Source of the DNA: an uncultured Phycisphaerales bacterium
GTDB taxonomy: Bacteria > Planctomycetota > Phycisphaerae > Tepidisphaerales > Tepidisphaeraceae
Direction of reading: 5' to 3'
Length of the DNA: 64,000 nt
NCBI GenBank assembly: GCA_963755915.1
Contig: CAVWLP010000002.1
Coordinates: 3,264,001-3,328,000 of the forward strand
Shown: positions 5,760 to 49,902 of the stretch, in pieces
Layout of the letters: each line of letters starts with the position of its first letter
How positions within the stretch are numbered: the first letter of the stretch is position 1
Notes under the pieces: generated by a model
What the model saw: only the letters and a program-made list of their open reading frames with translations
Database searches by the model: none
Told to the model about the DNA's origin: nothing
Position numbers and translations under genes: made by a program

Positions 5760-6835
5760 GGGGCTTTTCTCGCCTCCAGCGTCAGGATCGTGGTTCGATC
5801 AGTGCGAATCGCGGTTGCGCTGGGCTCTCCGCCAGAGAGCCACCATGTATTTGAGCCCATTTGAATTGCAGTAAGACAGCAGGCAGGTATCACCATTCTG
5901 CCGACGGAAGTGACATCGAGCGTGTCGAGATTTACGAGGAAGATTTCGTCGCTCACCTGATCCAGCGACCCAACACGACCCGTCAACATGATTTGCCGGT
6001 TTGGGAGGGCGGTGGCAGACCAGCCGTAGCCCGGGAAGTTCAGGCCGTCGAGACGGTGCCAGTGATCGGATGCCGGATCATATTTATAAACATCTCCGAA
6101 AACAGTCGTTGCCGGTTGGAATGGAGGATAAACGATGCCGCCAAATAGATAGAGACCGGAATCAACGGCCACAAAAGCAGAGAATGCTCGTCCAATGGTC
6201 GGGAGTGGCGATAAACTTTTCCACTGAGCTTGATCTGCGGTGAGATCGAGGGACCAGAGGGCGTTGCTGATTTTGCCTTCCGACATGCCGCCAAAGACGT
6301 AGAACGTTCCGTTTGCGATAGCGCCCGCTGCGCCTTCCACAGGTTCGGGAAGCGAAGCGAGGGGATGCCAGGATGACCCCACCCGGGTGTCGGCCAAGTG
6401 TTGGACGTCGCTGGTTTCGTGGTGGCCCTCCGCCCCGCCGGCGATGTAGAGACCATCCGGCCCCGACACATAGGCGCAATCACTAAGGGGCTGGGCAAGC
6501 GAGGGACCAGGCGCCCAGCGGCCGTCGCGGAAGACGAAGCAGTCGTTTCGCCAGACTTTGTGTTTCTGGCCGGTCTGAGGGTCTTCCGGCCAACTCGATC
6601 CACCCACGACAACCGGAAGCCCGCGGACAAGCCCACCAGCGTGACCGGCCACCGCCAACGGCAAGCGCGGACCTTCACTGATTTGCGCGACGAATGGTGC
6701 ATCGGAAACAGAATTGGTTCCGTCGGCTACGGCGCTGCAAACGATCAGTGCGATCGGCAGCAACATTACCGCCACGGCCCCGTGCAAGGCGTTTTGATGA
6801 TGCGCTAGCGCCTTCATGGACAGAACTTTCCTCAA
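5756..6835 (-). CDS. Secreted Kelch-repeat beta-propeller (NanM mutarotase-like)
   Basis: Repeated VVVGG/LYIAGG/FYVFGG/LYLFGG...W Kelch motifs and an N-terminal hydrophobic segment. Confidence 0.8.
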   Translation of the reverse strand: MRKVLSMKALAHHQNALHGAVAVMLLPIALIVCSAVADGTNSVSDAPFVAQISEGPRLPLAVAGHAGGLVRGLPVVVGGSSWPEDPQTGQKHKVWRNDCFVFRDGRWAPGPSLAQPLSDCAYVSGPDGLYIAGGAEGHHETSDVQHLADTRVGSSWHPLASLPEPVEGAAGAIANGTFYVFGGMSEGKISNALWSLDLTADQAQWKSLSPLPTIGRAFSAFVAVDSGLYLFGGIVYPPFQPATTVFGDVYKYDPASDHWHRLDGLNFPGYGWSATALPNRQIMLTGRVGSLDQVSDEIFLVNLDTLDVTSVGRMVIPACCLTAIQMGSNTWWLSGGEPSATAIRTDRTTILTLEARKAP

Positions 6836-7713: not shown

Positions 7714-9336
7714 TCAGGTGTATTCGAGCGACAATCGCCCGGCACCGTCGACGGCCTGCGGCTCATTTTTTTCTTCGGTTGATTTGTCGCCTTGGTGCAG
7801 TGTAAAGAGCGTAAGATTTCTAAGCTTTTCTGCCGAGGGACGAACACCAGTGATAAAGGGTGCGATCAAGCCGAACGCGATCGTGCCGACGAAGGCGGGC
7901 ATGGAGACTACCATGAAGCTGATGGGGTTGTGCTCCCATCGGCTTTTGAGATACCACGCGATCATTAAGACCGTAATCGTGACGCCGAACGCCACGGCCG
8001 TGAGCACGTGATTGGCATTGCAGCGCGTGCTGATCACGCCCAGGAAAAAGACCGGGGGAACAACCGTGATTATCGCGCCCCAGATGGTGTTGGATTCGAT
8101 AACGGTCTCCCGCAAACTGTCGGCTGTGATGCTCATGGCGATCGCCATTGCAGTCCCGAGGATGCCAAGGCCGACCGTCGCCCAGCGAGAGTAGACGACC
8201 TGTCGTTCGTCGCTCGCGTCAGGGTCAAAGAATCGGACGCAATAGTCTTTGGTAACGACCGTGGACAAGGACATGATGAGTGCGCCGATGGTTGAGGTGG
8301 CGGCAGACAGCGCCGCCGCCGCCACGAGGCCCGGGATCGGCTGAGGAGTTTCAAGCACAATAAAGCGGAATAACGCCAGGTCTCCCGGCGGATTTCCGCC
8401 CGCCAACGGATGCTGCGCGAAATGAACATAAATTGCCAAGCCGAGGAACCACAGCAGTGCGCCCAGCGGAATGAAAATGAGAACGGACGTAATGAACGAT
8501 CGTCGCGCGGCCTTGTAGGACGCGGTACATAGCAATTGCTGGATAGCGATCTGATCGGAACTGCTGTAAAACATGTATGCAAATACTGACCCCATCATCA
8601 GAACCCAGAAGGTGATTCTCACGTGCGGGTCGAAGGAAAAGAAATTCTGCTCGAACTTAAAGCCTTTGCCGTGCGCGAATGAATATTTGATGACGCTGAC
8701 GGCGCCACCGTCAACGCTTCGAATGGCAAGAAACACCGCTGCCCCGATTCCGGCGACCGTCACTCCGAATTGAAGGACGTGAATCCAGATCACCGCCTTC
8801 AATCCACCGAGGGTGCTGTAGATAATGCTGACAGTTCCGACCAGAAGGGCGGTTACCCAAACCGGCCAGCCGGCCAGGCCCTGGAATATCCTCGCGCACG
8901 AAAACAAAATGATGGCGAGAACGGAGATTCGCGTAAAAAGGTAAATCGTGCTGACCAGCGCTCGCACGCGCGCGTCAAACCGACGTTCGAGGTAGGCGAA
9001 CGGAGTATAGGTTTTTACATTGAAGTAAAATCGCACGAATATGAAGAAGAACAGCAGCCCGGTAAACGGTGCGAACCACTCTAGAACATAAAGACGCAAG
9101 CCGTTGTTGTATGCCTCGCCGGGAGTCGAAACCAGCGACACCGTGCTGAAGAGTGCCATCACATAGGAGATCGCAGCCGCCCACCAGGGCGTGCGACCGC
9201 CGGCCAGGAGGTGTTCATCTGCTTCGGACTCACCGGCGGCTACCAGACGGCGTTTGTGCCGTGTGGTGAACATTCCTCCCATGGCGCAAATCGCCACGAG
9301 AAACGAAGCCATGATCAAATAATCGAGCCAATTCAT
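7714..9336 (-). CDS. Sodium:solute symporter (SSS family)
   Basis: 540-aa polytopic membrane protein; YLERRFD, YSTLGGLKAVIW and DQIAIQQLL motifs. Confidence 0.9.
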   Translation of the reverse strand: MNWLDYLIMASFLVAICAMGGMFTTRHKRRLVAAGESEADEHLLAGGRTPWWAAAISYVMALFSTVSLVSTPGEAYNNGLRLYVLEWFAPFTGLLFFFIFVRFYFNVKTYTPFAYLERRFDARVRALVSTIYLFTRISVLAIILFSCARIFQGLAGWPVWVTALLVGTVSIIYSTLGGLKAVIWIHVLQFGVTVAGIGAAVFLAIRSVDGGAVSVIKYSFAHGKGFKFEQNFFSFDPHVRITFWVLMMGSVFAYMFYSSSDQIAIQQLLCTASYKAARRSFITSVLIFIPLGALLWFLGLAIYVHFAQHPLAGGNPPGDLALFRFIVLETPQPIPGLVAAAALSAATSTIGALIMSLSTVVTKDYCVRFFDPDASDERQVVYSRWATVGLGILGTAMAIAMSITADSLRETVIESNTIWGAIITVVPPVFFLGVISTRCNANHVLTAVAFGVTITVLMIAWYLKSRWEHNPISFMVVSMPAFVGTIAFGLIAPFITGVRPSAEKLRNLTLFTLHQGDKSTEEKNEPQAVDGAGRLSLEYT

Positions 9337-10592
9337 TCGGAACTCTGTGAGGCGGCGAGACTGGTTTGCAGGCCGAACACCTTTTCACGCAAATCGTCGA
9401 GACGAACCGGGGCACCTGATGCGGCGCTTTCATCGGCAGCGAAACTGAGAACCGATGCTTCGATCCCCTCGCGCAGCCCTGGCCGCTCAGGGTTTCGTCG
9501 TCCGGCAAGCGCGTCGAAGAAGTCCCTGGTAAGAATTGAGTCTCCGCCGTTATGGCCGGACTGGTCGGGGGATACGGTAAACGTTTCAATGATTTCGCCA
9601 CCGCGCCGGTCGCGCCGATAAACGCGGAATTCGTTATCGCTGAGTCCCCCATACAATCGTGCCTCCGAGCCCAGGATGTGGATGGTGCGCCGGGTTGCCG
9701 GCTGACACTGCACGACCGAGAAATTGCATAACACCCCGTTATCATAGCGTATATTCAAAACCTGATGATCGGGATAGGTATGGCGAGCGCTGAAGACACA
9801 GGTGTCTTCCTCCAGCTTCTGCAGTACTTCTCTAAGTTCCTTCGGCCAAGCCACTTCATAAATTTCGGGAACACTGCCGTGTACGAAGCGGCAACTATCG
9901 GTGAGGGTGCAATTGCTGCAATTTTCGGCGGCATATGGACGAGGCTTGAGAAATGTGCGTGCCGCGAAAGAGTGGACGAGCTGAGGTTTGCCTCCAACAA
10001 GCCAATTCAAAATGTCCATGTCATGCGAGCATTTTTCAGCCATGAGGCCACCCGACATCTGCCGTTGCGGCCGCCAGTCCCCGCGGGCGAACACGATGGA
10101 CAGATCATCGCCCATTAGTTCCTCTGCATTAATAGCGAGAATCTTTCCGAGGGCACCCGAATCGCAGATTTCCTTAATGCGCATGTAAAAGGGTGTGTAT
10201 CGAAGGCAGAAGCCGAGAACCGGGTCCTGCGCCGTCCGAGTGTGTCCTTCCCACATGGCAGCCATGTCGGAAAGCGATGCGGCGACGGGCTTTTCGAGCA
10301 AACATTTCACGCCATTGTTCATCGCCTCTATGGCGGATTCCCGATGGACATAGTTTGGACTCGCGATCACGACACCGTCGAGATCCTGCGTTGCAGTAAG
10401 GAGTTCAGCGCCTTTTTGAAAGATATCCGCGCGATTATTTGCGAACAGGCGTGATGAGATTTTGGCGTAACGAAGATCAGGATCGGCGACTGCGACGAGC
10501 TCAAAGGGCATTTGAGCCTGTCGAAAATTGTTTATCAGCCATACCCCCCGCAGTCCACACCCAATGAGGCCGATTCGATAAGGTTGGTTCAT
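9333..10592 (-). CDS. Gfo/Idh/MocA family oxidoreductase
   Basis: IGLIGCGLRG, LLEKP, EKCSHDMD, GHNGGD. Start reassigned to MNQPY (10592; 10604 is possible) because the longer ORF start overlaps the divergent promoter region. Confidence 0.9.
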   Translation of the reverse strand: MNQPYRIGLIGCGLRGVWLINNFRQAQMPFELVAVADPDLRYAKISSRLFANNRADIFQKGAELLTATQDLDGVVIASPNYVHRESAIEAMNNGVKCLLEKPVAASLSDMAAMWEGHTRTAQDPVLGFCLRYTPFYMRIKEICDSGALGKILAINAEELMGDDLSIVFARGDWRPQRQMSGGLMAEKCSHDMDILNWLVGGKPQLVHSFAARTFLKPRPYAAENCSNCTLTDSCRFVHGSVPEIYEVAWPKELREVLQKLEEDTCVFSARHTYPDHQVLNIRYDNGVLCNFSVVQCQPATRRTIHILGSEARLYGGLSDNEFRVYRRDRRGGEIIETFTVSPDQSGHNGGDSILTRDFFDALAGRRNPERPGLREGIEASVLSFAADESAASGAPVRLDDLREKVFGLQTSLAASQSSE

Positions 10593-37150: not shown

Positions 37151-38041
37151 TCACGCCGTCTGGCCGGCGGATACCCCCACATCAGAAGACAACGGCGGCT
37201 CTGTCACGGTGTCTTCCGGGGGGGAGCACCCTTCATCGCCGGCGGTACTCCGCCGTCCTTTTGGATTTGTCTTTTCCGGTGTCCCGGATTGGCCTGCCGT
37301 GAGCGAAGTCGAATGGCCCCCATGCCGAAGGCGGTAGCTCTTGCCGGTGATGTTGATGATCGTGGCGTGCTGCAGGAACCGATCCAGAATGGCCGTGGCC
37401 GCCGGCACGTCGCCGATCAGCTTGGCCCAGTCCTCCAGTGGACGGTTGCTGGTCATCATCGTCGAGCGGTTCTCGTGCCGGCGCATGACGATCTCCAGCA
37501 GGCATTCGCCGCTGCGCCGCGGAAGCTGCTTCATTCCCATGTCGTCGATGATAAGCAGATCAGGCTTGAGATACCGGGCCAGCGTCTTGTCCTGGGCTCC
37601 CAGATCCTCGTCGCCTAAAAAGTCGCGGGCCAGGTCGAAGATGGATCGGTACAGGACCACCAAGCCGCTCTTGATCGCCTGGTGTCCGATGGCCTGGGCC
37701 AAAAACGATTTGCCCACGCCGGGCGGACCCAGCAAGAGCACGTCACGTTTGTCACGAATGAACTGGCCGGCGGCCAGATCGTGAATCTGTTTGCGTTTGA
37801 TGGAGGTGTTGAAGGAGAAGTCGAACTCGTCGAGGTTTTTGGTGTCGCGGAACATCGCCGCCTTGACGCGCCGGCCGATCTGCCGGCTGGATCGGACGTT
37901 CAGTTCATCCTGAAGGATCAGTTCCAAAAACTCACTGTGGTCGAGCCGATTGCCGGCCGCCTCGCTCAGGCGAACTTCAAGGCTGCTCGCCAGACCTGAA
38001 AGCCGAAGTTGCTTGAGCGTCTGCATCAACGAAGGTCTCAT
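37151..38041 (-). CDS. istB: IS21 helper ATPase IstB
   Basis: GPPGVGKS, LLIIDDMG, AILDRFL, GKSYR. Confidence 0.95.
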   Translation of the reverse strand: MRPSLMQTLKQLRLSGLASSLEVRLSEAAGNRLDHSEFLELILQDELNVRSSRQIGRRVKAAMFRDTKNLDEFDFSFNTSIKRKQIHDLAAGQFIRDKRDVLLLGPPGVGKSFLAQAIGHQAIKSGLVVLYRSIFDLARDFLGDEDLGAQDKTLARYLKPDLLIIDDMGMKQLPRRSGECLLEIVMRRHENRSTMMTSNRPLEDWAKLIGDVPAATAILDRFLQHATIINITGKSYRLRHGGHSTSLTAGQSGTPEKTNPKGRRSTAGDEGCSPPEDTVTEPPLSSDVGVSAGQTA

Positions 38042-39745
38042 GGGGTGGACTCCCTTCGGCTCTGCTCAGGGCAGGCCTGTAAAGGTTGTGCGGCAGGCAA
38101 AGCCTCCGCTTGGGTGATTGCGTCGCGTACGAACTGTCCGTAATCGGCCAGTCCGCGGATGATTGGATGTTCCTGAACAAACTCGAAGTGTTGTTGAACC
38201 GGCGCGCCGTTTTGGTGTTCGATGAGCTGCCGCAGGGAGCGCAGGTGATACGCGCCATGCCCCAGAGCAATCTCGCAGGCTCGTTCCACGGCCGGTCGCG
38301 GCTGCTGATTGGCCAGCGACAGCAGCCCCATCAACACGCGCACGCCTTCGATGCCGCGATGCTGAAGCATTGACTGCGCCCACTGCGTGGCGTGCGGCCC
38401 GATGCATTCGATCCGCTGGAGAAGCCAGGTCGTTCCACGCTCGATGCCGCTGATCTTCTCCGGCAGGATATGGGCGTCTTGCGTCGAGAACCTGCCCGGC
38501 GGACGCTGCGCGTGCAGAGCGATCGCACGCATCTTCTGATCGAACAGCCGGACCGTGCGCCGTCCCACCGCGCCCAGACCCGCTGGCCCAAAAACTCCGG
38601 CGGGACCGAATAGTACGCCCCCTTGATCTCCACGTGCCCGTCGCGGTGAACACTGCGCAACGCCTCGGTGAAAAGATCGAATCGCACCGGCGGCAGAGCC
38701 AACAGTGCCGGCTTCTCTACCTGCTCGAAGACTTCCTTCACCTGCCGCCGCGTCGTGCCGTGGATGCGCGTGTCGGCCACGCTCTTCTCCCACGTCAGCA
38801 GATGCGCGTTCTGATCCGAGAGCGAGGCGAATTGCCGGCCTTTGAGAGCATTGCTCTTCACATAGCCGATGCCCCGCTCGATCTTCCCCTTGTGCCGCGG
38901 CGTGTACGGCTTGGTGGGCAGAATGGCGATTCCATAATGTTCGGCGAACGACCGGACCTTGGGACACAACTCCGCCTCGAACCAGTCCGCCCGCGTCACC
39001 GCCGCGCGAAGATTGTCGATCACCAGCGCTGACGGCATCCCGCCGAAGTGCGTAAAGGCATTTTCCAGACAACGCAGAAAATCATCGGTCGTCTGCCGCT
39101 CCACCGCCTCGGCGTACCCCTTGCGGCTGTGGCTCAGCACAATGCGGAAGACCCAGGTTGCTTTGCGTTTGCCGTCAGGACCGACCAGGGCGCACCCCGG
39201 CCGAAGTCCACCTGCGCCTCGGCTCCCGGCTCGCATTCCATCCGGCGAAAGGGCGCCGGCGCGGCAGCCGAGAGCTTCTTGATGAACCGGCGCACGCTGT
39301 AATAGCTGCCGGCATAGCCGTGATCGCTGGAGATGTCTTGATAAATCCGCTGGGCCGTCAGCCCGGCTTCCAACTTCTGAACAATGACCTCACGCCAGGG
39401 CGATGCCGTACTGACCGACCCGATGGGCGCGCCGGATAACCCGGTGGGCGCGCTCTCCGAGCCGCCTGCGGCGAGCACCGTCGAGCCGCCTGCGGCGAGC
39501 ACCGTCGAGCCGCCTGCGGCGAGCACCGTCGAGCCGCCTGCGGCGAGCACCGTCGAGCCGAGGGGCGCGCTGGCCGGTTTTGAATCCGATCCGGGCGCCG
39601 CAGGATCGCCGCCCGACAACCGGATGTGGCGTCCAACGGTCTCCCGGTGAACGCCGAGTTGGCGGGCGATGTTCCGATTGGACCAGCCGCTGCGCACAAG
39701 TGCCAAAATTGCTTGTACTTCCGCCATCTTGAGTTGATTGGCCAT
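38038..39745 (-). CDS. istA: IS21 transposase IstA with two apparent frameshifts (~39190, ~38560)
   Basis: Three ORF pieces (39134-39766, 38331-39236, 38038-39072) together align with the IstA of element A. Confidence 0.88.
39458..39560. repeat. 24-bp perfect tandem repeat, 4 copies plus 7 nt, inside istA
   Basis: Unit CGAGCCGCCTGCGGCGAGCACCGT, encoding STVLAAGG x4 on the minus strand. Confidence 0.95.
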
Positions 39746-39884
39746 CCCACCATTGGCTTGCGGCAACCGCCGAAAGCCAAGGTCGATAACCCAATCTCCT
39801 GTGCCTCAAAATGGCCGGTTTTGGCGCGCCCTCAATTGGCCGGTTTTGCGCCCCATGACAGCTCACCAGACCCCTTAGAGTTTC

Positions 39885-40340
39885 CTACTTGTCTTCAAAA
39901 GGCGGAAAAGCCGGAAGCTCGCCGGCGAGGTGCACGGCGATCAGCTCAAGCAACTGAATCGGATCGACAGGCTTCAACAGGAGCGGCGGAAGCTGGCGCG
40001 AGGGGAGCTGACGGATGTGTTCCTGGATTTCGTCGATGGGCATTCCTGAAAGCAGGATCACGGGCAATCCCGAGCGATTTTTTTGCAGGTACGTCAGCAC
40101 ATGAAAGCCATCCTTGCCGGGCATTTGCAGATCGAGGATCAGGAGGTCGATTGGGCGGTGCTGGAGGAGCTCGACGGCGGACTCGGCATCCGTGGAGACC
40201 TCGACGGTGTAGCCGTTGCCGCGCAAGTAATGGGCGACGGCGAGGCTTTCAATGGGGGAATCGTCGCAGACAAGCAGGCGCCAGGTGCGACCGATTGGCG
40301 GCTCAGGCGGAGGCGCACTTGTGTCGTCCCCTAAATTCAC
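39885..40340 (-). CDS. Single-domain response regulator (receiver)
   Basis: LVCDDS, DLLILDLQMPGKDG, LLSG, LKP. Confidence 0.9.
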   Translation of the reverse strand: MNLGDDTSAPPPEPPIGRTWRLLVCDDSPIESLAVAHYLRGNGYTVEVSTDAESAVELLQHRPIDLLILDLQMPGKDGFHVLTYLQKNRSGLPVILLSGMPIDEIQEHIRQLPSRQLPPLLLKPVDPIQLLELIAVHLAGELPAFPPFEDK

Positions 40341-40542
40341 AATAACCTAGGTTATCTCGCCATAGCGAAGCACCGCAATCGCAAAAATGTGCGTGGGGCC
40401 ACCGCTGCGTTCGCTGGATTCAGATATGATTCGAAATTGGGAAGCCAGTTGATCGCATTTGCCGCAGAGAAAGCACCGCGAAATATATGTTCGCAGAGTT
40501 CATTCCCGTCGTGGTACCCTCCCGACGAAAGCGAGCACGATT

Positions 40543-41358
40543 ATGTACATAAAAGTGGGCTATGAGCTGATCTATGACTGCCCCCAGCCGACGCCAATGC
40601 TGCTAATGCTCAACATCCATTACAGCCATGCCCAAGAAATCGTCACGCCGGATTATCTGGTCTTCAATCCCATCGTGGAGACTACAGCCTACCGAGACGG
40701 GTACGGCAACTGGTGCCACAGGCTCGAATTGCCTCGCGGCCGCACAACCATCAGCACTTTAGCAACGGTGCGCTCGACCGGGATCCCTGATCCGGTCGTG
40801 CCGGCAGCCCAGCAGCATCCGATTTCAGAGTTGCCCGAAGAGGCGCTCGTTTATCTTCTGGCGAGCCGGTATTGCGAGACAGATCTTTTGACGGCAACCG
40901 CATGGAATCAGTTTGGGAATACGCCGCTTGGTTGGCCTCGGCTGCAAGCGATCTGCGATTTTGTACACAACCATATCCGATTCGACTACTCGCAGGCCCG
41001 GGCAACCCGGACAGCGACGGAGGCGTTCAACGAACGGGTCGGCGTGTGCCGGGACTTTGCCCATCTAGCGATCGCGCTTTGCCGGTGCATGAACATTCCG
41101 GCTCGCTATTGCACGGGGTATCTCGGTGACATTGGCATGCCGCCGCCTTATGGTCCTATGGATTTTGCGGCCTGGTTTGAGGCGTTCCTCGGCGGCCAGT
41201 GGTATATCTTCGATCCGCGTAACAACATGCCGCGGATCGGTCGAATACTGATCGCTCGCGGACGGGATGCGGTGGATGTGGCGATTAGCACCACGTTTGG
41301 CCCCACCACACTCGTGGGGTTCACGGTGATATGCGACGAAGTGGAAAAACCGAATTGA
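40543..41358 (+). CDS. Transglutaminase-like family protein
   Basis: SRYCETD, GVCRDFAHL, IPARYCTGYL, AWFEAF, FDP, GRDAVDV. Confidence 0.9.
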   Translation: MYIKVGYELIYDCPQPTPMLLMLNIHYSHAQEIVTPDYLVFNPIVETTAYRDGYGNWCHRLELPRGRTTISTLATVRSTGIPDPVVPAAQQHPISELPEEALVYLLASRYCETDLLTATAWNQFGNTPLGWPRLQAICDFVHNHIRFDYSQARATRTATEAFNERVGVCRDFAHLAIALCRCMNIPARYCTGYLGDIGMPPPYGPMDFAAWFEAFLGGQWYIFDPRNNMPRIGRILIARGRDAVDVAISTTFGPTTLVGFTVICDEVEKPN

Positions 41359-41608
41359 TCGGGCGACGAGGAAACGCCATCCGAACAAGCAGGCACATGA
41401 CCCACGATGCTCTCGATTTTGAAAGCGGGCTTTCCGACCCGGATAAGCAGAATTGTCAGGCGGAATTTCTCTTCTGAGAACGATCTTCGCAAACGAACGC
41501 CAAAGACATTGGGGGATGGGACAAACAAAAAGCCGGCCGAGCCGGCACCTTACGGTTGGAACGATTTCATTGCGCCGGCAGGGTTACCGTGGCAAGCTAT
41601 ACGTGAAG

Positions 41609-41649
41609 CCAGACCCCTTATTAAGCTGTTCGGGGTCTGGTTTCGTTTT
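41609..41649 (+). terminator. Possible intrinsic terminator
   Basis: CCAGACCCC...GGGGTCTGG 9-bp stem with a 14-nt loop, followed by TTTCGTTTT. Confidence 0.4.
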
Positions 41650-41708
41650 GGCTAGGAGGTTGAGAATTAAAAAAAAGCCCGCAGAGATGCGAGCTTGACG
41701 GGCAGGAA

Positions 41709-41975
41709 TTAGGCCTTAATGACGCCGATGGCGATCCGGCCGCCATCCATCGGCGAAAGAATGAGACGGGTGTTACCTGGACCACCTTCGTGAGACGAGG
41801 ATCTGACGAGCACCATGTTCGGGACTTGGTGGCCCAGATCGATATGAATGCGGCCTAATTCCGTCACGATGTCGATCGCATCGAGATCGTTCGGTAATTC
41901 GACCCCCATCCGTCCCTGGCACCTTCGATACGTAAAGGTTTCGGCATATGTTCCTTTCGATGAGTCTGGGGTCAT
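41709..41975 (-). CDS. Small hypothetical protein
   Basis: 88-aa ORF with protein-like composition, followed by an imperfect hairpin and T-run on the minus strand. Confidence 0.45.
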   Translation of the reverse strand: MTPDSSKGTYAETFTYRRCQGRMGVELPNDLDAIDIVTELGRIHIDLGHQVPNMVLVRSSSHEGGPGNTRLILSPMDGGRIAIGVIKA

Positions 41976-42430
41976 GATACTGCGCTCGGGACTTGAGCGC
42001 TACCATTGACTGTTTCTCGGCGGCTGCACAAAATGCGTGGCAATTCGAGAAACTGTCATGCCACATTGGATAGAAAGACATCCAATTCCTGGTGGAACCG
42101 TCGCTGACGCCGATTTCGTGATTCAGGCACCCCCAGGGGCTCCGGTCGTCGCCGTGGCTGTTGAGAACGGCGTCCCAACGTTGCACATTTGGGTTTCCCA
42201 ATAGGATGCTCGGATGCGCCGGACTTTCTTTTTCGTGCATCCGGCGGACCAACTCCCCGCAGTACTGCCAATTGGTTACGTGGGCTGGTATCAAATGAAT
42301 GGAGTGATGGCCCACGTATTCGAAAAACAGCCGGTGGCATCATCTCCATACTTCCATCGAATGTTCTAGTTCTTCGTTTTGTGCGTTTTGACGCAAACGG
42401 TGCAAGTATTCCTCCTTAACCCATTTGGTG

Positions 42431-42657
42431 GGGGCGGAGCCCCTGTCGGTTGGTTCCTCTCCCCTCCCAGAGATCGTGTCGAGAAACCCGTTGCGGTGCT
42501 GTGAAGCACCAACCGAGTCCCCCGTGAGGGGGACGAGGAGCCGGACTTTTTCTCCGAGCGTGAGCGAGAGGAACCGGCGAACGTGAGTGAGGCGGTTCCG
42601 ACAGAGAAAAAGGACGGCTGTCGGGGGGTGCGAGACACCGGCAAACAGCCGGAACCC
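42431..42657 (+). ncRNA. Unidentified highly structured non-coding element (RNA or ssDNA)
   Basis: Hairpins GGTGCT-GTGA-AGCACC, GTCCCCC-GTGA-GGGGGAC, GGGGC-GGA-GCCCC; long stem AGCCG-GA-CTTTTTCTC / GAGAAAAAG-GA-CGGCT; stem GGAACCG/CGGTTCC. Confidence 0.55.
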
Positions 42658-42691
42658 TTTGTAATACAAGGCTCAAACGAAAACAGGGGGT

Positions 42692-43712
42692 ACCGCCAGC
42701 TATGAAGCCCGTCCCTTCGGTTGCCACTCGGCGCAACCAATGGCGGTCGCCAAGCGGCTCTGCCCACAGGCCATCATCTTGCCTGTGAGGATGGAGAGGT
42801 ATCACGCCGTCTCTGAGCAGATGTTCTCGATCCTCGACGAATTTTCGCCGGTGGTTGAACCCCTGAGCATCGACGAAGCCTTCCTCGACCTCGCGGGCAC
42901 AGAGCGAGGCGCTAGGCAAAGCGATGGATGTCGCCTGCAAGCTCAAGGGCCGCATCAAGTCAGACCTGAAGATCACAGCCTCAGTGGGAATTGCACCCAA
43001 CAAGTATCTTGCCAAGCTGGCTTCGGACATGAAGAAGCCCGATGGTCTGGTCCTCATCAGCCCAGACGACATCGACCGTGTCCTGCCGCCGTTGCCGGTG
43101 ACGAAACTCTGGGGCATCGGTACGGCAACGGCAGCACGGCTGGCACCGCTGGGCGTCAGGACCATCGCCGATCTGCGCAAGAAGCCCTTGGATTGGCTGG
43201 AGAAGCACCTCGGCTCTGAGGCAGAGCGGTATTTCTACCTTGCGCACGGAATCGACGATCGGCCTGTCGTTCCCGACCGAGAGGCCAAGAGCATTGGTCA
43301 CGAACAAACCTTTGAGATCAATATCGTCGATGTCGACGAAGTCCGGCGCGTGCTGTTGGATCAGGTGGAGCAGGTTGCCAGCCGTCTTCGCAAAAACCGT
43401 GTTCACGCCGGCGGGATCACGCTGAAGATCAGGTTCGGGCAGTTCAAGACGATCAGCCGGTCGATGACCCTCGGCGTTTCGACCGCCGCTACGAACGAGC
43501 TATGGCAGGCCGCACGACGCTTGTTCGACAATTGGTCATTCCAACCGGTACGACTCATCGGCGTTACCGCTGAACGGCTCACTCGGTTGGAGGGAGAGTC
43601 GGGGTTGTTTGCTGATCCCCAAAGGGAGAGGCAGAAGAAGCTTGATAAGGTGGCAGATCAAATCAACGAAAAGTTCGGAAAGAGAGCGATTCGGCGGGGT
43701 GGGGCGAGTTAA
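42692..43712 (+). pseudogene. dinB: DNA polymerase IV, 5'-truncated and frameshifted (~42915)
   Basis: Begins abruptly at [10 protein letters not shown]; has [33 protein letters not shown] and VRLIGV; the N-terminal catalytic D-x-D-x-F motif is missing. Confidence 0.88.
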
Positions 43713-49826: not shown

Positions 49827-49902
49827 TCGGGGCGACAGGATTCGAACCTGCGACCTCTTGACCCCCAGTCAAGCGTTCTAGGCCAAACTGAACTACGCCC
49901 CG
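49827..49902 (-). tRNA. tRNA-Pro(GGG)
   Basis: CGGGGCG acceptor stem, anticodon arm CTTGA-CTGGGGG-TCAAG, T arm GCAGG-TTCGAAT-CCTGT, discriminator A, CCA not encoded. Confidence 0.95.

Follow-up and report, generated by a model that had tools for sequence, protein, structure and literature searches.

A conserved folded element at the attachment-site end of integrative islands in Tepidisphaeraceae

Positions 42431-42657 of the stretch of DNA analysed here (64,000 nucleotides, referred to as the window) are densely filled with hairpins, and the locus raises the question of whether these arose by chance, belong to an RNA or act as folded single-stranded DNA. An earlier note had suggested a novel non-coding RNA or switch, or a single-strand origin (sso)-like DNA structure of a mobile element. 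The folded nucleic-acid element is real and conserved, its hairpins are not due to chance, and it is probably a small non-coding RNA.

Fold, conservation and working strand

All hairpins listed in the earlier note are present where it had placed them. On the plus strand, two hairpins with GUGA loops, P1 (GGTGCT-GTGA-AGCACC, 42495-42510) and P2 (GTCCCCC-GTGA-GGGGGAC, 42517-42534), precede a three-way junction, P3 (42539..42619), whose 16-bp stem with conserved tandem G.A pairs (42539-42554 with 42604-42619) encloses P3a and P3b. P3a (CGAGC-GTGA-GCGAG, 42555-42568) also contains tandem G.A and ends in a GUGA loop. P3b (42570-99) is formed by GGAACCG/CGGTTCC (42570-76 with 42593-99) around AC-GTGA-GT, and its GUGA loop was seen in nearly all homologues. 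Two further plus-strand hairpins are GGGGC-GGA-GCCCC (42431-42443) and GGTG-CGAGA-CACC (42627-42639), the latter already broken in the two other copies of this genome and not conserved. Folded as RNA, the plus strand of 42431-42657 reached -111.7 kcal/mol (z -3.93), which none of 200 shuffles equalled; the minus strand reached -101.7 kcal/mol (z -3.12).

The genome holds three copies of the element (that of the window, B and C) at 93-98% identity. The earlier note had missed that its region is one of three copies, that it is cut at 42699, and that full copies carry a further hairpin, P6, followed by the 3' end of the gene for a large serine recombinase (LSR). Homologues, at approximately 70-95% identity, were found in 10 of 141 Tepidisphaeraceae genomes by covariance model and in 17 metagenome contigs, and 11 loci were found in GTDB. 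Most copies, including that of the window, are of a form termed type-1, which in full is approximately 330 nt long with a core of approximately 190 nt, and the genes to the left vary between lineages. Four of the 13 genomes of the first BLAST within the family (G010, G051, G069 and G101) were rejected, having 26-37-nt matches only that the covariance model did not confirm, and three pattern hits (L028, L046 and L055) were dropped as chance matches within unrelated coding DNA. Weak relatives were seen in G134 and G126. A pattern scan of viral contigs yielded no loci, and in the searches made the element family was seen only in Tepidisphaeraceae (Planctomycetota).

RNAalifold gave a poor consensus on raw MAFFT alignments, and therefore hand-drawn and model-based structures were used. 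With the hand-drawn structure and a 21-sequence MAFFT alignment, 24 of 59 pairs had changed on both sides, a count that neither shuffles (15.8±1.9; 0/500) nor slid controls (3-8) reached. A model-fitted alignment of 24 rows, which is biased towards the model, gave 14 of 38 such pairs compared to 9.3±1.4 (0/500) and 1-3, respectively. Compensatory pairs were found in P1 (5 of 6 in the 21-sequence alignment; loop GUGA, GCUA or GGGA among homologues), P2 (2 of 7, with 91-93% of cells paired and a triloop or CAGA as loop in some lineages) and, in the model-fitted alignment, P3 (5 of 16) and both helices of P3b (outer 4 of 6, inner 3 of 4). In divergent G131 copies the tandem G.A columns are replaced by Watson-Crick pairs. 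The loop of P3a changes from GUGA to CUCG or CUCU among homologues. This pattern of substitution indicates that the structure is kept by selection.

The plus strand is the working strand, as the earlier note had proposed. Read on this strand, the alignment holds 136 G.A/A.G cells and 5 C.T/T.C cells; tandem G.A pairs are conserved along with the GUGA loops. Folding favours the plus strand in 23 of 24 homologues when RNA parameters are used (mean -10.1 kcal/mol) and in 22 of 24 when DNA parameters are used; with the latter, the fold of copy B had a z of -3.7. Helix cells contained 16 G.U and 17 A.C, and such an absence of G.U excess over A.C is unusual for a structured RNA.

Position in recombinase islands and decay of the window copy

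Full copies of the element continue into P6 and then into the last ~25 codons of the LSR gene. In 20 of 28 distinct homologues the element is followed immediately by the stop codon and tail of the LSR, and three more reach a contig end. Synonymous changes and a stop that varies between TGA and TAG show that this tail is truly coding. These last ~25 codons contain the attachment (att, crossover) site, and a complete LSR in the integrated state (L049:2107-3684) continues into a tRNA gene at the expected tail position. It follows from the att site in the tail that the element marks an island's att-proximal end. LSR tails in other genomes adjoin weak or undetectable versions of the element, and the recombinase therefore does not strictly need it.

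T4CP-like genes are divergent from the element at four loci (L027, L042, L056 and G119:C61), and G119:C61 also encodes ParB-like, ArdC-like and Replic_Relax proteins and a second T4CP/VirB4-like ATPase. The islands are integrative and probably conjugative, and the structure belongs to a mobile element, as the earlier note had surmised. No relaxase was found beside the element in L027, L042 and L080, even at E<=1, and the sole relaxase-like gene seen (Replic_Relax) lies approximately 13 kb from the palindrome in G119:C61. This palindrome characterizes a second form of the element, type-2, in which it is found approximately 100 nt upstream of the element beside the divergent T4CP-like gene, and in which approximately 110 nt separate the element from the crossover within the LSR tail. 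The excised circle would be ordered as T4CP-like coupling-protein gene (leftward), palindrome with TATCCACA, extended -10 box, structured element (rightward), opposite-strand terminator hairpin and LSR gene (leftward). After integration, one island end would hold the element and LSR tail, and the opposite end the LSR body.

The window copy as defined by the repeat spans 42410-42699. The earlier limits of 42431..42657 enclosed the structured core and fell short of the unit, which in full copies runs on to the LSR tail. The 5' extension of the type-1 form (42409..42475, plus strand) comprises a conserved polypyrimidine tract (42409-42422), the GGGGC-GGA-GCCCC hairpin and a C-rich tract (42461-42468) that is able to pair with a G-rich tract (42622-42628). 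Alignments place the polypyrimidine tract and an extra hairpin in divergent type-1 homologues also; the closing C/G helix is present in the MFE fold of copy B and was compared across lineages by eye only. The 3' part that is kept (42620..42699, plus strand) consists of the G-rich tract, a variable region, hairpin P5 (42656-42671), a conserved A-rich stretch and the mutated 5' arm alone of P6 (42688-42697). Homology to other copies ends at 42699, inside P6, and the 3' part present in full copies is missing.

Joined directly to this truncated end is a plus-strand dinB-like (IMS family) pseudogene (42700..43712) without ~52 N-terminal profile positions. Its frame shifts near 42900-42925, between an ORF at 42740-43219 with Pfam IMS profile positions 53-113 and an ORF at 42924-43712 with IMS 115-148, IMS_HHH and IMS_C; this frameshift alone is weak evidence, as the assembly may carry indel errors. 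The left part of the three-copy repeat unit (41585..41983, minus strand) matches copies B and C at 93% and 91% identity, respectively, and is not conserved in other genomes. It contains back-to-back terminator-like hairpins at ~41640-41700, including a minus-strand terminator-like site at 41696-41675. Copies B and C also have a short 79-aa ORF here (intact at L002:1163-1402(-)), the window version of which (41709-41975) has a 1-nt deletion. Between this part and the element lies a copy-specific stretch of 426 nt (41984..42409) in place of 62 nt in copies B and C. Neither the rest of the genome nor any of the fetched loci matched this stretch, and its ORFs had no family hit. Neither this insertion nor the 79-aa ORF nor a 125-aa ORF had a Pfam or NCBIfam family or a homologue. 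The genome of the window encodes LSR fragments only, with no coupling-protein gene and no intact island. The window copy is a broken relic that has lost LSR tail and att site, and it is probably inactive at its place.

Non-coding RNA or single-strand DNA origin

We give a probability of about 0.5 to the reading of the element as a gene for a non-coding RNA that has a promoter of its own and is transcribed convergently to the recombinase gene. No same-strand gene is found downstream, which argues for a stand-alone transcript and not a leader. Exactly one extended -10-like box, TGnTAnnnT, was found on the plus strand 26-37 nt 3' of TATCCACA in eight of eight distinct sequences from five lineages, these being all sequences with the upstream TATCCACA (type-2). 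A sixth and far more divergent lineage, G134, showed the same layout of motif and box by eye; type-1 copies had neither this layout nor anything comparable. A two-hexamer promoter scan of the plus strand just upstream of the element gave no hit in L027, L035 and L002, the hits in L037 were both on the minus strand, and the only plus-strand hit of the window (42006-42034) lies ~375 nt upstream, inside the copy-specific insertion. Of the 21 sequencing runs listed, none recorded as RNA contained the stretch.

Loop substitutions in the element go from GNRA to YNMG-type, and one tandem G.A sits in a GGAC context, which is favourable in RNA; both features fit RNA better. The C-GNA-G triloops of the 5' hairpins were counted against RNA, as GNA triloops and sheared G.A pairs are known to stabilise DNA hairpins as well. 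The RNA would be transcribed from its own promoter and fold into a C/G closing helix around two GNRA-capped hairpins and the three-way junction with tandem G.A. No plus-strand terminator was found after the structure, and therefore transcription of the circular form would continue into the recombinase gene from its 3' side. By an antisense effect or by transcription interference the RNA might hold the recombinase in check, a role that we purely infer, and the invariant structured core might be a stability or protein-binding module.

That the element matches no known RNA family, as the earlier note had stated, was confirmed by Rfam and ARAGORN. Rfam 15, with its group II intron domains, tmRNA, HEARO and riboswitches, at gathering thresholds found only a tRNA (49827-49902) in the whole window; at E<=10 nothing in 41400-42900 exceeded 26 bits or covered the element, and at E<=0.1 ten full-length homologue loci had only flanking tRNAs and weak matches on these. 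ARAGORN detected no tRNA or tmRNA gene in L001 and L002, and only a separate tRNA-Ser in L003. A tmRNA was also rejected for copy B, whose T-arm-like end with CCA proved to belong to the LSR tail, where the att side mimics a tRNA. A miniature element of the IS200/IS605 type was rejected as well, since the flanking palindromes are unlike each other and there is no Y1 transposase or TnpB gene.

Omega RNAs of IscB and TnpB, such as HEARO, and the IS110 bridge RNA are likewise large structured RNAs at the extreme end of an element, reading outward. The present element differs from them in having no Rfam match and no partner gene: Pfam searches of the flanks of 15 loci found LSR, T4CP-like, ParB-like, ArdC-like and Replic_Relax proteins along with host genes, and no IscB, TnpB, Cas or IS110-type gene. 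A guide RNA was rejected because the variable region does not co-vary with att type; copies B, C and L005 share the variable loop region and have differing att-side sequences. FinP, RNA-OUT and Anti-Q, short and simple stem-loops, are antisense RNAs that damp transposase, integrase or conjugation genes. Shared with these would be an own-promoter small RNA gene convergent to or overlapping a key gene of the element, and a promoter beside an operator-like palindrome. In contrast to them, the present element is built on a core of ~190 nt with several helices, invariant junctions, tandem G.A and GNRA loops, and it would overlap its target gene at the 3' instead of the 5' end.

The main alternative, a serious though less probable one, is a single-strand DNA origin (sso/ssi-like), with which position and strand of the element are also compatible. 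The transferred or displaced plus strand, nicked near the upstream palindrome, would fold, and host RNA polymerase or a primase would start the complementary strand on it. The extensive secondary structure is indeed strictly specific to one DNA strand and is significant with DNA parameters also; the lack of a G.U excess, the GNA triloops and the tandem G.A pairs, which are good DNA-hairpin motifs, are likewise in favour. In type-2 copies the element lies between palindrome and T4CP-like gene on one side and the LSR crossover on the other. With the tra-like gene directed away from the palindrome and the LSR gene towards it, the plus strand would be the template. Such an orientation of genes is usual around oriT and its leading region. 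The Replic_Relax and ArdC-like proteins of the island further suggest transfer of single-stranded DNA.

In ICEBs1, sso1 lies downstream of oriT, and the authors of that study reason that this placement keeps att single-stranded until recircularisation (PMC4595007); the architecture of the island agrees with this logic. Like sso1 and rolling-circle sso elements, the element is a strand-specific structure of a few hundred nucleotides in a mobile element that carries conjugation-type genes, and it would lie downstream of oriT and before att if the palindrome were oriT (PMC4595007). It differs from the ICEBs1 and plasmid sso in its RNA-like loops and non-canonical pairs, in the putative duplex-type promoter box just upstream, and in its Planctomycetota host and LSR recombinase.

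Several points speak against a single-strand origin. The one relaxase-like gene seen is distant, nick site and oriT are putative, and the palindrome is absent from most copies (type-1). The conserved extended -10 box, a duplex-type signal, would be superfluous for an sso, and the YNMG-type loops and GGAC tandem G.A suit RNA better. No -35/-10-like pair usable as a hairpin promoter was found within the element by a simple, sigma-70-tuned hexamer scan of the window copy, L002, L027 and L035. The absence of such a pair also sets the element apart from the Frpo/ssi promoters (PMC11541004), and type-2 copies moreover have no downstream gene in the reading direction of a single-stranded promoter; points of agreement are several copies per genome and a fold close to the end of the transferred strand that putatively enters first. 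From the earlier proposal, non-coding RNA and sso-like DNA both stand, and the switch is not supported.

No structured motif or conjugative-island module was found described for Tepidisphaeraceae in the literature, and the element would give this family its first reported structured motif and its first candidate for a conjugative-island module. Large serine recombinases are in wide use for genome engineering, and to our knowledge their natural elements are generally considered to require protein factors alone. A conserved and elaborately folded element within ~130 nt of the recombinase's own att site points to a level of control in these islands that is so far unexplored, and this would hold for an RNA as well as for a single-strand DNA origin.

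Less probable readings

A more far-reaching version of the non-coding RNA, which we consider improbable, is a new structured RNA class that works with the LSR island and is not a mere antisense transcript. Such an RNA could be a cofactor or decoy that determines when, or in which direction, integration and excision take place, or it could be needed by the island to establish itself after transfer, with the invariant 8-bp tandem G.A segment and the near-invariant GUGA loop of P3b as a specific protein-recognition surface.

Slightly less probable still is a vegetative replication origin of the excised island, with a structured primer RNA like RNA II of ColE1. The upstream TATCCACA, fullest in L037 and G134, resembles the DnaA-box consensus, AT-rich DNA and then the long structured transcript region follow it, and the ParB-like gene of the island hints at plasmid-like maintenance. 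However, no Rep gene adjoins, the motif is absent from type-1 copies, there is no marked RNA-DNA transition point, and the likeness is based on one short motif.

It is quite unlikely that the minus strand is the functional one, be it as a 3' UTR or insulator after the recombinase or as a leader of small minus-strand genes such as the 79-aa ORF of copies B and C. On the minus strand, P6 with its T-run is terminator-like in every full copy scanned, L035 has a second terminator-like site ~150 nt past the element, and the element ends in a strong Shine-Dalgarno-like sequence. Yet on this strand the conserved G.A pairs become C.U/U.C mismatches, the loops become UCAC and the fold is the worse one in all but one of the 24 homologues; the genes on the left differ among lineages, and by eye the Shine-Dalgarno-like tract has no usable start codon in four of five lineages. 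In the window copy alone, a TTG at +5 of this tract opens a frame of 21 codons.

A riboswitch- or thermometer-like switch with two mutually exclusive folds, an option of the earlier note, is very improbable: its 13-bp alternative helix (42449-42461/42566-42578) exists and is significant in the window (z -2.7) and in copy B (z -3.6), but is confined to the window lineage, being absent in 16 other homologues tested (z -1.3 to +0.8), no Rfam riboswitch matched, and there is no same-strand gene downstream to be controlled, the LSR gene being on the other strand. L005, one of these 16 homologues, carries the core sequence of the window copy behind a different upstream region.

Copies and homologues of the element

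All hairpins that the earlier note had listed within positions 42431-42657 were found exactly where it had placed them. Folded as RNA, the + strand of this stretch reached -111.7 kcal/mol (z -3.93, 0/200 shuffles as good) and the minus strand -101.7 kcal/mol (z -3.12). No known RNA had been recognised here, and no Rfam match was obtained at the gathering score in the whole window or at E<=10 in 41400-42900. ARAGORN found neither a tRNA nor a tmRNA at the element, and nothing in Rfam 15 matches it.

The stretch 42410-42699 is repeated twice more in this genome, on contig C2 at 1292343 (+ strand, copy B) and 4841119 (minus strand, copy C), each 93% identical to the window copy (copy A). Copies B and C share 98% identity across a unit of ~780 bp, which consists of terminator-like hairpins set back to back, a minus-strand ORF of 79 aa that matched nothing in Pfam or NCBIfam, a 62 nt spacer and the structured element. 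The window copy is a truncated remnant of the element. It has 426 nt at the position of the 62 nt spacer of B and C, its small ORF carries a 1-nt deletion relative to theirs, and its homology ends at 42699, in a hairpin loop, whereas B and C have the entire hairpin. Directly after 42699 follows a dinB-like (IMS) gene lacking ~52 N-terminal profile positions and with one frame change; this pseudogene (42700-43712), joined to the truncated element, may belong to the island's cargo and not to the host. To the left, a high-copy insertion-sequence-like repeat occupies 38000-39860 and may reach further left, as the query started at 38000. Elsewhere in the genome it is matched over nearly its full length 24 times (19 on contig C2, 5 on contig C3; 95-99.6% identity), besides fragments, and its copies differ in how often a 24-nt tandem repeat within them recurs. 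Between it and the repeat unit lie two ordinary-looking genes, a response-regulator receiver gene (39885-40340, minus strand) and a transglutaminase-like gene (40459-41358, + strand).

A BLAST search over 141 family genomes recovered diverged copies at 69-93% identity, frequently several per genome and frequently at contig ends. An exact-match pattern drawn from the most conserved blocks was run on GTDB representatives, metagenome contigs and viral contigs. Among the GTDB representatives it gave 12 loci, 11 of them true and all in Tepidisphaeraceae, Phycisphaerales or Planctomycetota MAGs; the remaining one was a chance match inside an actinomycete kinase gene. Metagenome contigs gave 19 loci (17 true, 2 by chance) and viral contigs none. 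A covariance model of the core (R1) was positive in 10 of 141 family/order genomes, and in a class sample it found the element in none of the 130 genomes searched from 20 other families. Weak, more divergent relatives adjoin recombinase tails in genomes G134 (E 0.008) and G126 (E 0.005), so the element family is somewhat wider than this model sees. Conservation across genomes was limited to the structured part; the 79-aa ORF was not conserved. Loci L009 and L018 belong to a genome flagged as unpublished (G062), but no claim depends on it alone, since their core was identical to that of public loci L030 and L037 at de-duplication.

Conserved structure and working strand

The structure comprises hairpins P1 and P2, usually capped by GUGA; a 16-bp stem, P3, whose tandem G.A lies in a GGAC/GGAC context and which closes a three-way junction holding helices P3a (CGAGC-loop-GCGAG, tandem G.A again) and P3b; a small hairpin, P5; and a GC-rich hairpin of 9-10 bp, P6. 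The whole core can be closed by pairing between a C-rich stretch ahead of P1 and a G-rich one behind P3, as in the minimum free energy fold of copy B; lineages were compared in this respect by eye. In a 21-row MAFFT alignment with a hand-drawn structure, 24 of 59 pairs had changes on both sides (shuffles 15.8±1.9, 0/500 reaching this; slid controls 3-8), with 84 such cells against 27.6. A 24-row alignment fitted to R1, and so biased to the model structure, gave 14 of 38 pairs (shuffles 9.3±1.4, 0/500; slid controls 1-3) and 65 cells against 20.6. The tandem G.A columns were non-canonical in 19-20 of 21-23 rows and became Watson-Crick pairs in the divergent copies of genome G131, as expected for true pairing. 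The GUGA loop of P3a was replaced by CUCG or CUCU and that of P2 by a triloop or CAGA, and P3b kept GUGA in all aligned homologues except the second G131 copy (AUGA). The GGTG-CGAGA-CACC hairpin of the earlier note exists in the window copy but is already lost in B and C. Internal tandem duplications of the P3 3' strand (~16-20 nt, 2-4 copies) at L022 (~1700-1730) and L080 (~10380-10440) suggest replication slippage inside the element.

The + strand is the working strand of the element. Helix columns held 136 G.A and A.G cells against 5 C.T and T.C cells, so the conserved purine pairs would become pyrimidine mismatches on the minus strand. When both strands of 24 homologues were folded, the + strand came out ahead in 23 under RNA parameters (by -10.1 kcal/mol on average) and in 22 under DNA parameters (-4.9). 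The + strand had been proposed earlier from GNRA loops and G-U pairs, and both the G.A cells and the folding upheld this choice, but G.U showed no excess over A.C. With G.U/U.G (16 cells) and A.C/C.A (17 cells) equally rare in the helices, the element is without the wobble signature that is usual in RNA families.

Recombinase tail, upstream contexts and island genes

To the right of P6 its 3' arm occurs once more; past an A-rich spacer follows a minus-strand stop codon, before which a conserved peptide ends in ...FFKDNPxWE. This tail is real coding sequence, since TGA/TAG stops and synonymous codons vary. Because L008:1729-2115 runs upstream into a typical C-terminal region of a large serine recombinase (LSR), and L049:2107-3684 encodes a full-length LSR of 526 aa (Resolvase, Recombinase and Zn_ribbon_recom domains), the peptide can be identified as an LSR C-terminus. 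In L049 the conserved tail is swapped for sequence read antisense through a tRNA gene (break after ...HPTQC), whereas in L054, L056, L048 and L022 the same frame runs on into the tail, which places the crossover ~25-27 codons before the recombinase's own stop. Integration parts the LSR body, at one island end, from the structured element and tail at the other, so that the C-terminus of the LSR protein differs between the integrated form and the circle (L049:3560-3700; tails of L054, L056 and L022).

The tail lies directly downstream in 20 of 28 distinct true homologues and three more stop at a contig end; the five that deviate are the truncated window copy, L009, L018, L011 and L057. LSR C-terminal homologues occurred in 38 of the 141 family genomes against 10 with the element, so the recombinase family is the wider one. 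In L027, L035 and L002, P6 with its T-run scored as a minus-strand terminator-like site; the simplest view is that it terminates transcription of the recombinase gene. P6 is followed by the extra 3' arm in all full copies (L002:1781-1819 and the corresponding positions), and this layout is kept in G134 (L116) despite an entirely different arm sequence, which suggests an alternative pairing or a repeated protein site. At L120 the arm motif adjoins the recombinase stop codon and the element is absent. The LSR ORF also contains a perfect GC-rich palindrome of ~13 bp (e.g. L049:3560-3595, L027 ~6334-6351) whose arms are kept while the loop varies among lineages, and which scored as terminator-like on the + strand in L027.

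On the left side, two contexts were distinguished. Type-2 (5 lineages, 8 distinct sequences) has a short palindrome, then the motif TATCCACA and, on the + strand, exactly one TGnTAnnnT box 26-37 nt farther downstream. By eye, this three-part arrangement recurs in the divergent G134 relative, and L010 has the motif and a -10-like hexamer without the TGn spacing. Left of type-2 copies lies a divergent gene for an ATPase like coupling proteins (T4CP), whose TrwB_AAD_bind and TraG-D_C domain matches are weak and far under NCBIfam cut-offs. Most copies, including all three of this genome, are type-1: a polypyrimidine tract that is conserved stands there instead, together with one or two additional hairpins capped by C-GNA-G triloops, and no promoter-like box was found in this context. 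In L035 the tract supplied the T-run of a small hairpin that scored as terminator-like on the + strand.

Contig G119:C61 begins at a type-2 copy, followed by T4CP-like, ParB-like and ArdC-like genes, and also encodes a Replic_Relax (relaxase-type) protein, a second T4CP/VirB4-like ATPase and an XRE regulator. L080 encodes a T4CP/HerA-like ATPase and a CHAP hydrolase, and L027 has umuD/umuC-like and SRAP genes. This gene set is that of a putative integrative conjugative or mobilisable element. In L027, an intact island relative, the umuD-like (Peptidase_S24), IMS-family and SRAP genes lie at 91-1711. The genome under study lacks T4CP homologues and has just three LSR fragments, so copies A, B and C are relics; two of the fragments adjoin B and C, and at copy C both island ends are still within 1.45 kb, beside a tRNA-Ser gene. 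In G131:C133 (L079), two diverged solo copies with tail (23-127 and 8498-8602) stand in direct orientation 8.5 kb apart and bracket two-component-system genes, with no recombinase gene between them.

A structured motif at a mobile-element end, whether non-coding RNA or single-strand origin (sso), is of an already known kind. Titles and abstract openings in the literature on sso in integrative and conjugative elements, on such elements in Tepidisphaeraceae, on large serine recombinases with non-coding RNA and attP, and on structured RNA motifs of Planctomycetes mentioned no such element. As far as these go, neither the element family and its architecture nor its close association with the 3' end of a serine recombinase gene, where attP lies, has been described so far.

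Possible functions of the element

The element is a strand-specific structure under selection, and has a fixed place between a regulatory palindrome beside a conjugation-type gene and the att site at the recombinase 3' end. We favour an RNA gene, with a probability of about one half, because a duplex-type extended -10-like box stands at a fixed offset in six lineages whose surroundings diverged, because loop swaps stay within stable RNA tetraloop classes, and because tandem G.A contexts of this kind are favourable in RNA. Moreover, no same-strand gene follows, so the element transcript would be the putative promoter's only product. With no + strand terminator ahead of the recombinase gene, transcription in the circular form would be expected to continue, antisense, into the recombinase 3' end. 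We conjecture that the RNA might restrain the recombinase, either by antisense pairing or by interfering with transcription, and that the invariant core might be a stabilising or protein-binding domain.

The main rival, which we regard as less likely though serious, is a single-strand DNA origin. It would agree with G.U not being in excess and with a fold that is significant with DNA parameters as well, and the GNA triloops and tandem G.A of the element would suit it too, as both also stabilise DNA hairpins. As a rule, tra genes are transcribed away from oriT and are the last to enter; if the palindrome is a nick site, the + strand would be transferred and the element would enter the recipient first. 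A passage on ICEBs1 (PMC4595007) locates sso1 downstream of oriT and argues that this placement keeps the att site single-stranded until recircularisation; compared with sso1 as described there, the element lies exactly between putative oriT and att site. However, the nick site is putative, the relaxase-type gene is 13 kb off, type-1 copies have no palindrome, and the conserved promoter-like box would serve no purpose in such an origin.

An RNA-primed replication origin and a minus-strand UTR or insulator are of minor weight, and so is the switch between mutually exclusive folds that the earlier note had proposed: among 18 sequences, its alternative 13-bp helix (42449-42461 with 42566-42578) was significant in just two when set against shuffled 5' regions, the window copy (z -2.7) and copy B (z -3.6), and absent from the 16 other homologues (z -1.3 to +0.8; among them L005, with the core of the window copy and a different upstream region), so a conserved switch is unsupported.

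Directly beside a type-1 copy on G119:C61 lies a type I-C-like cas set (L082:6315-14292) of cas2, cas1, cas4, cas3, cas7, a 729-aa ORF and cas5d.
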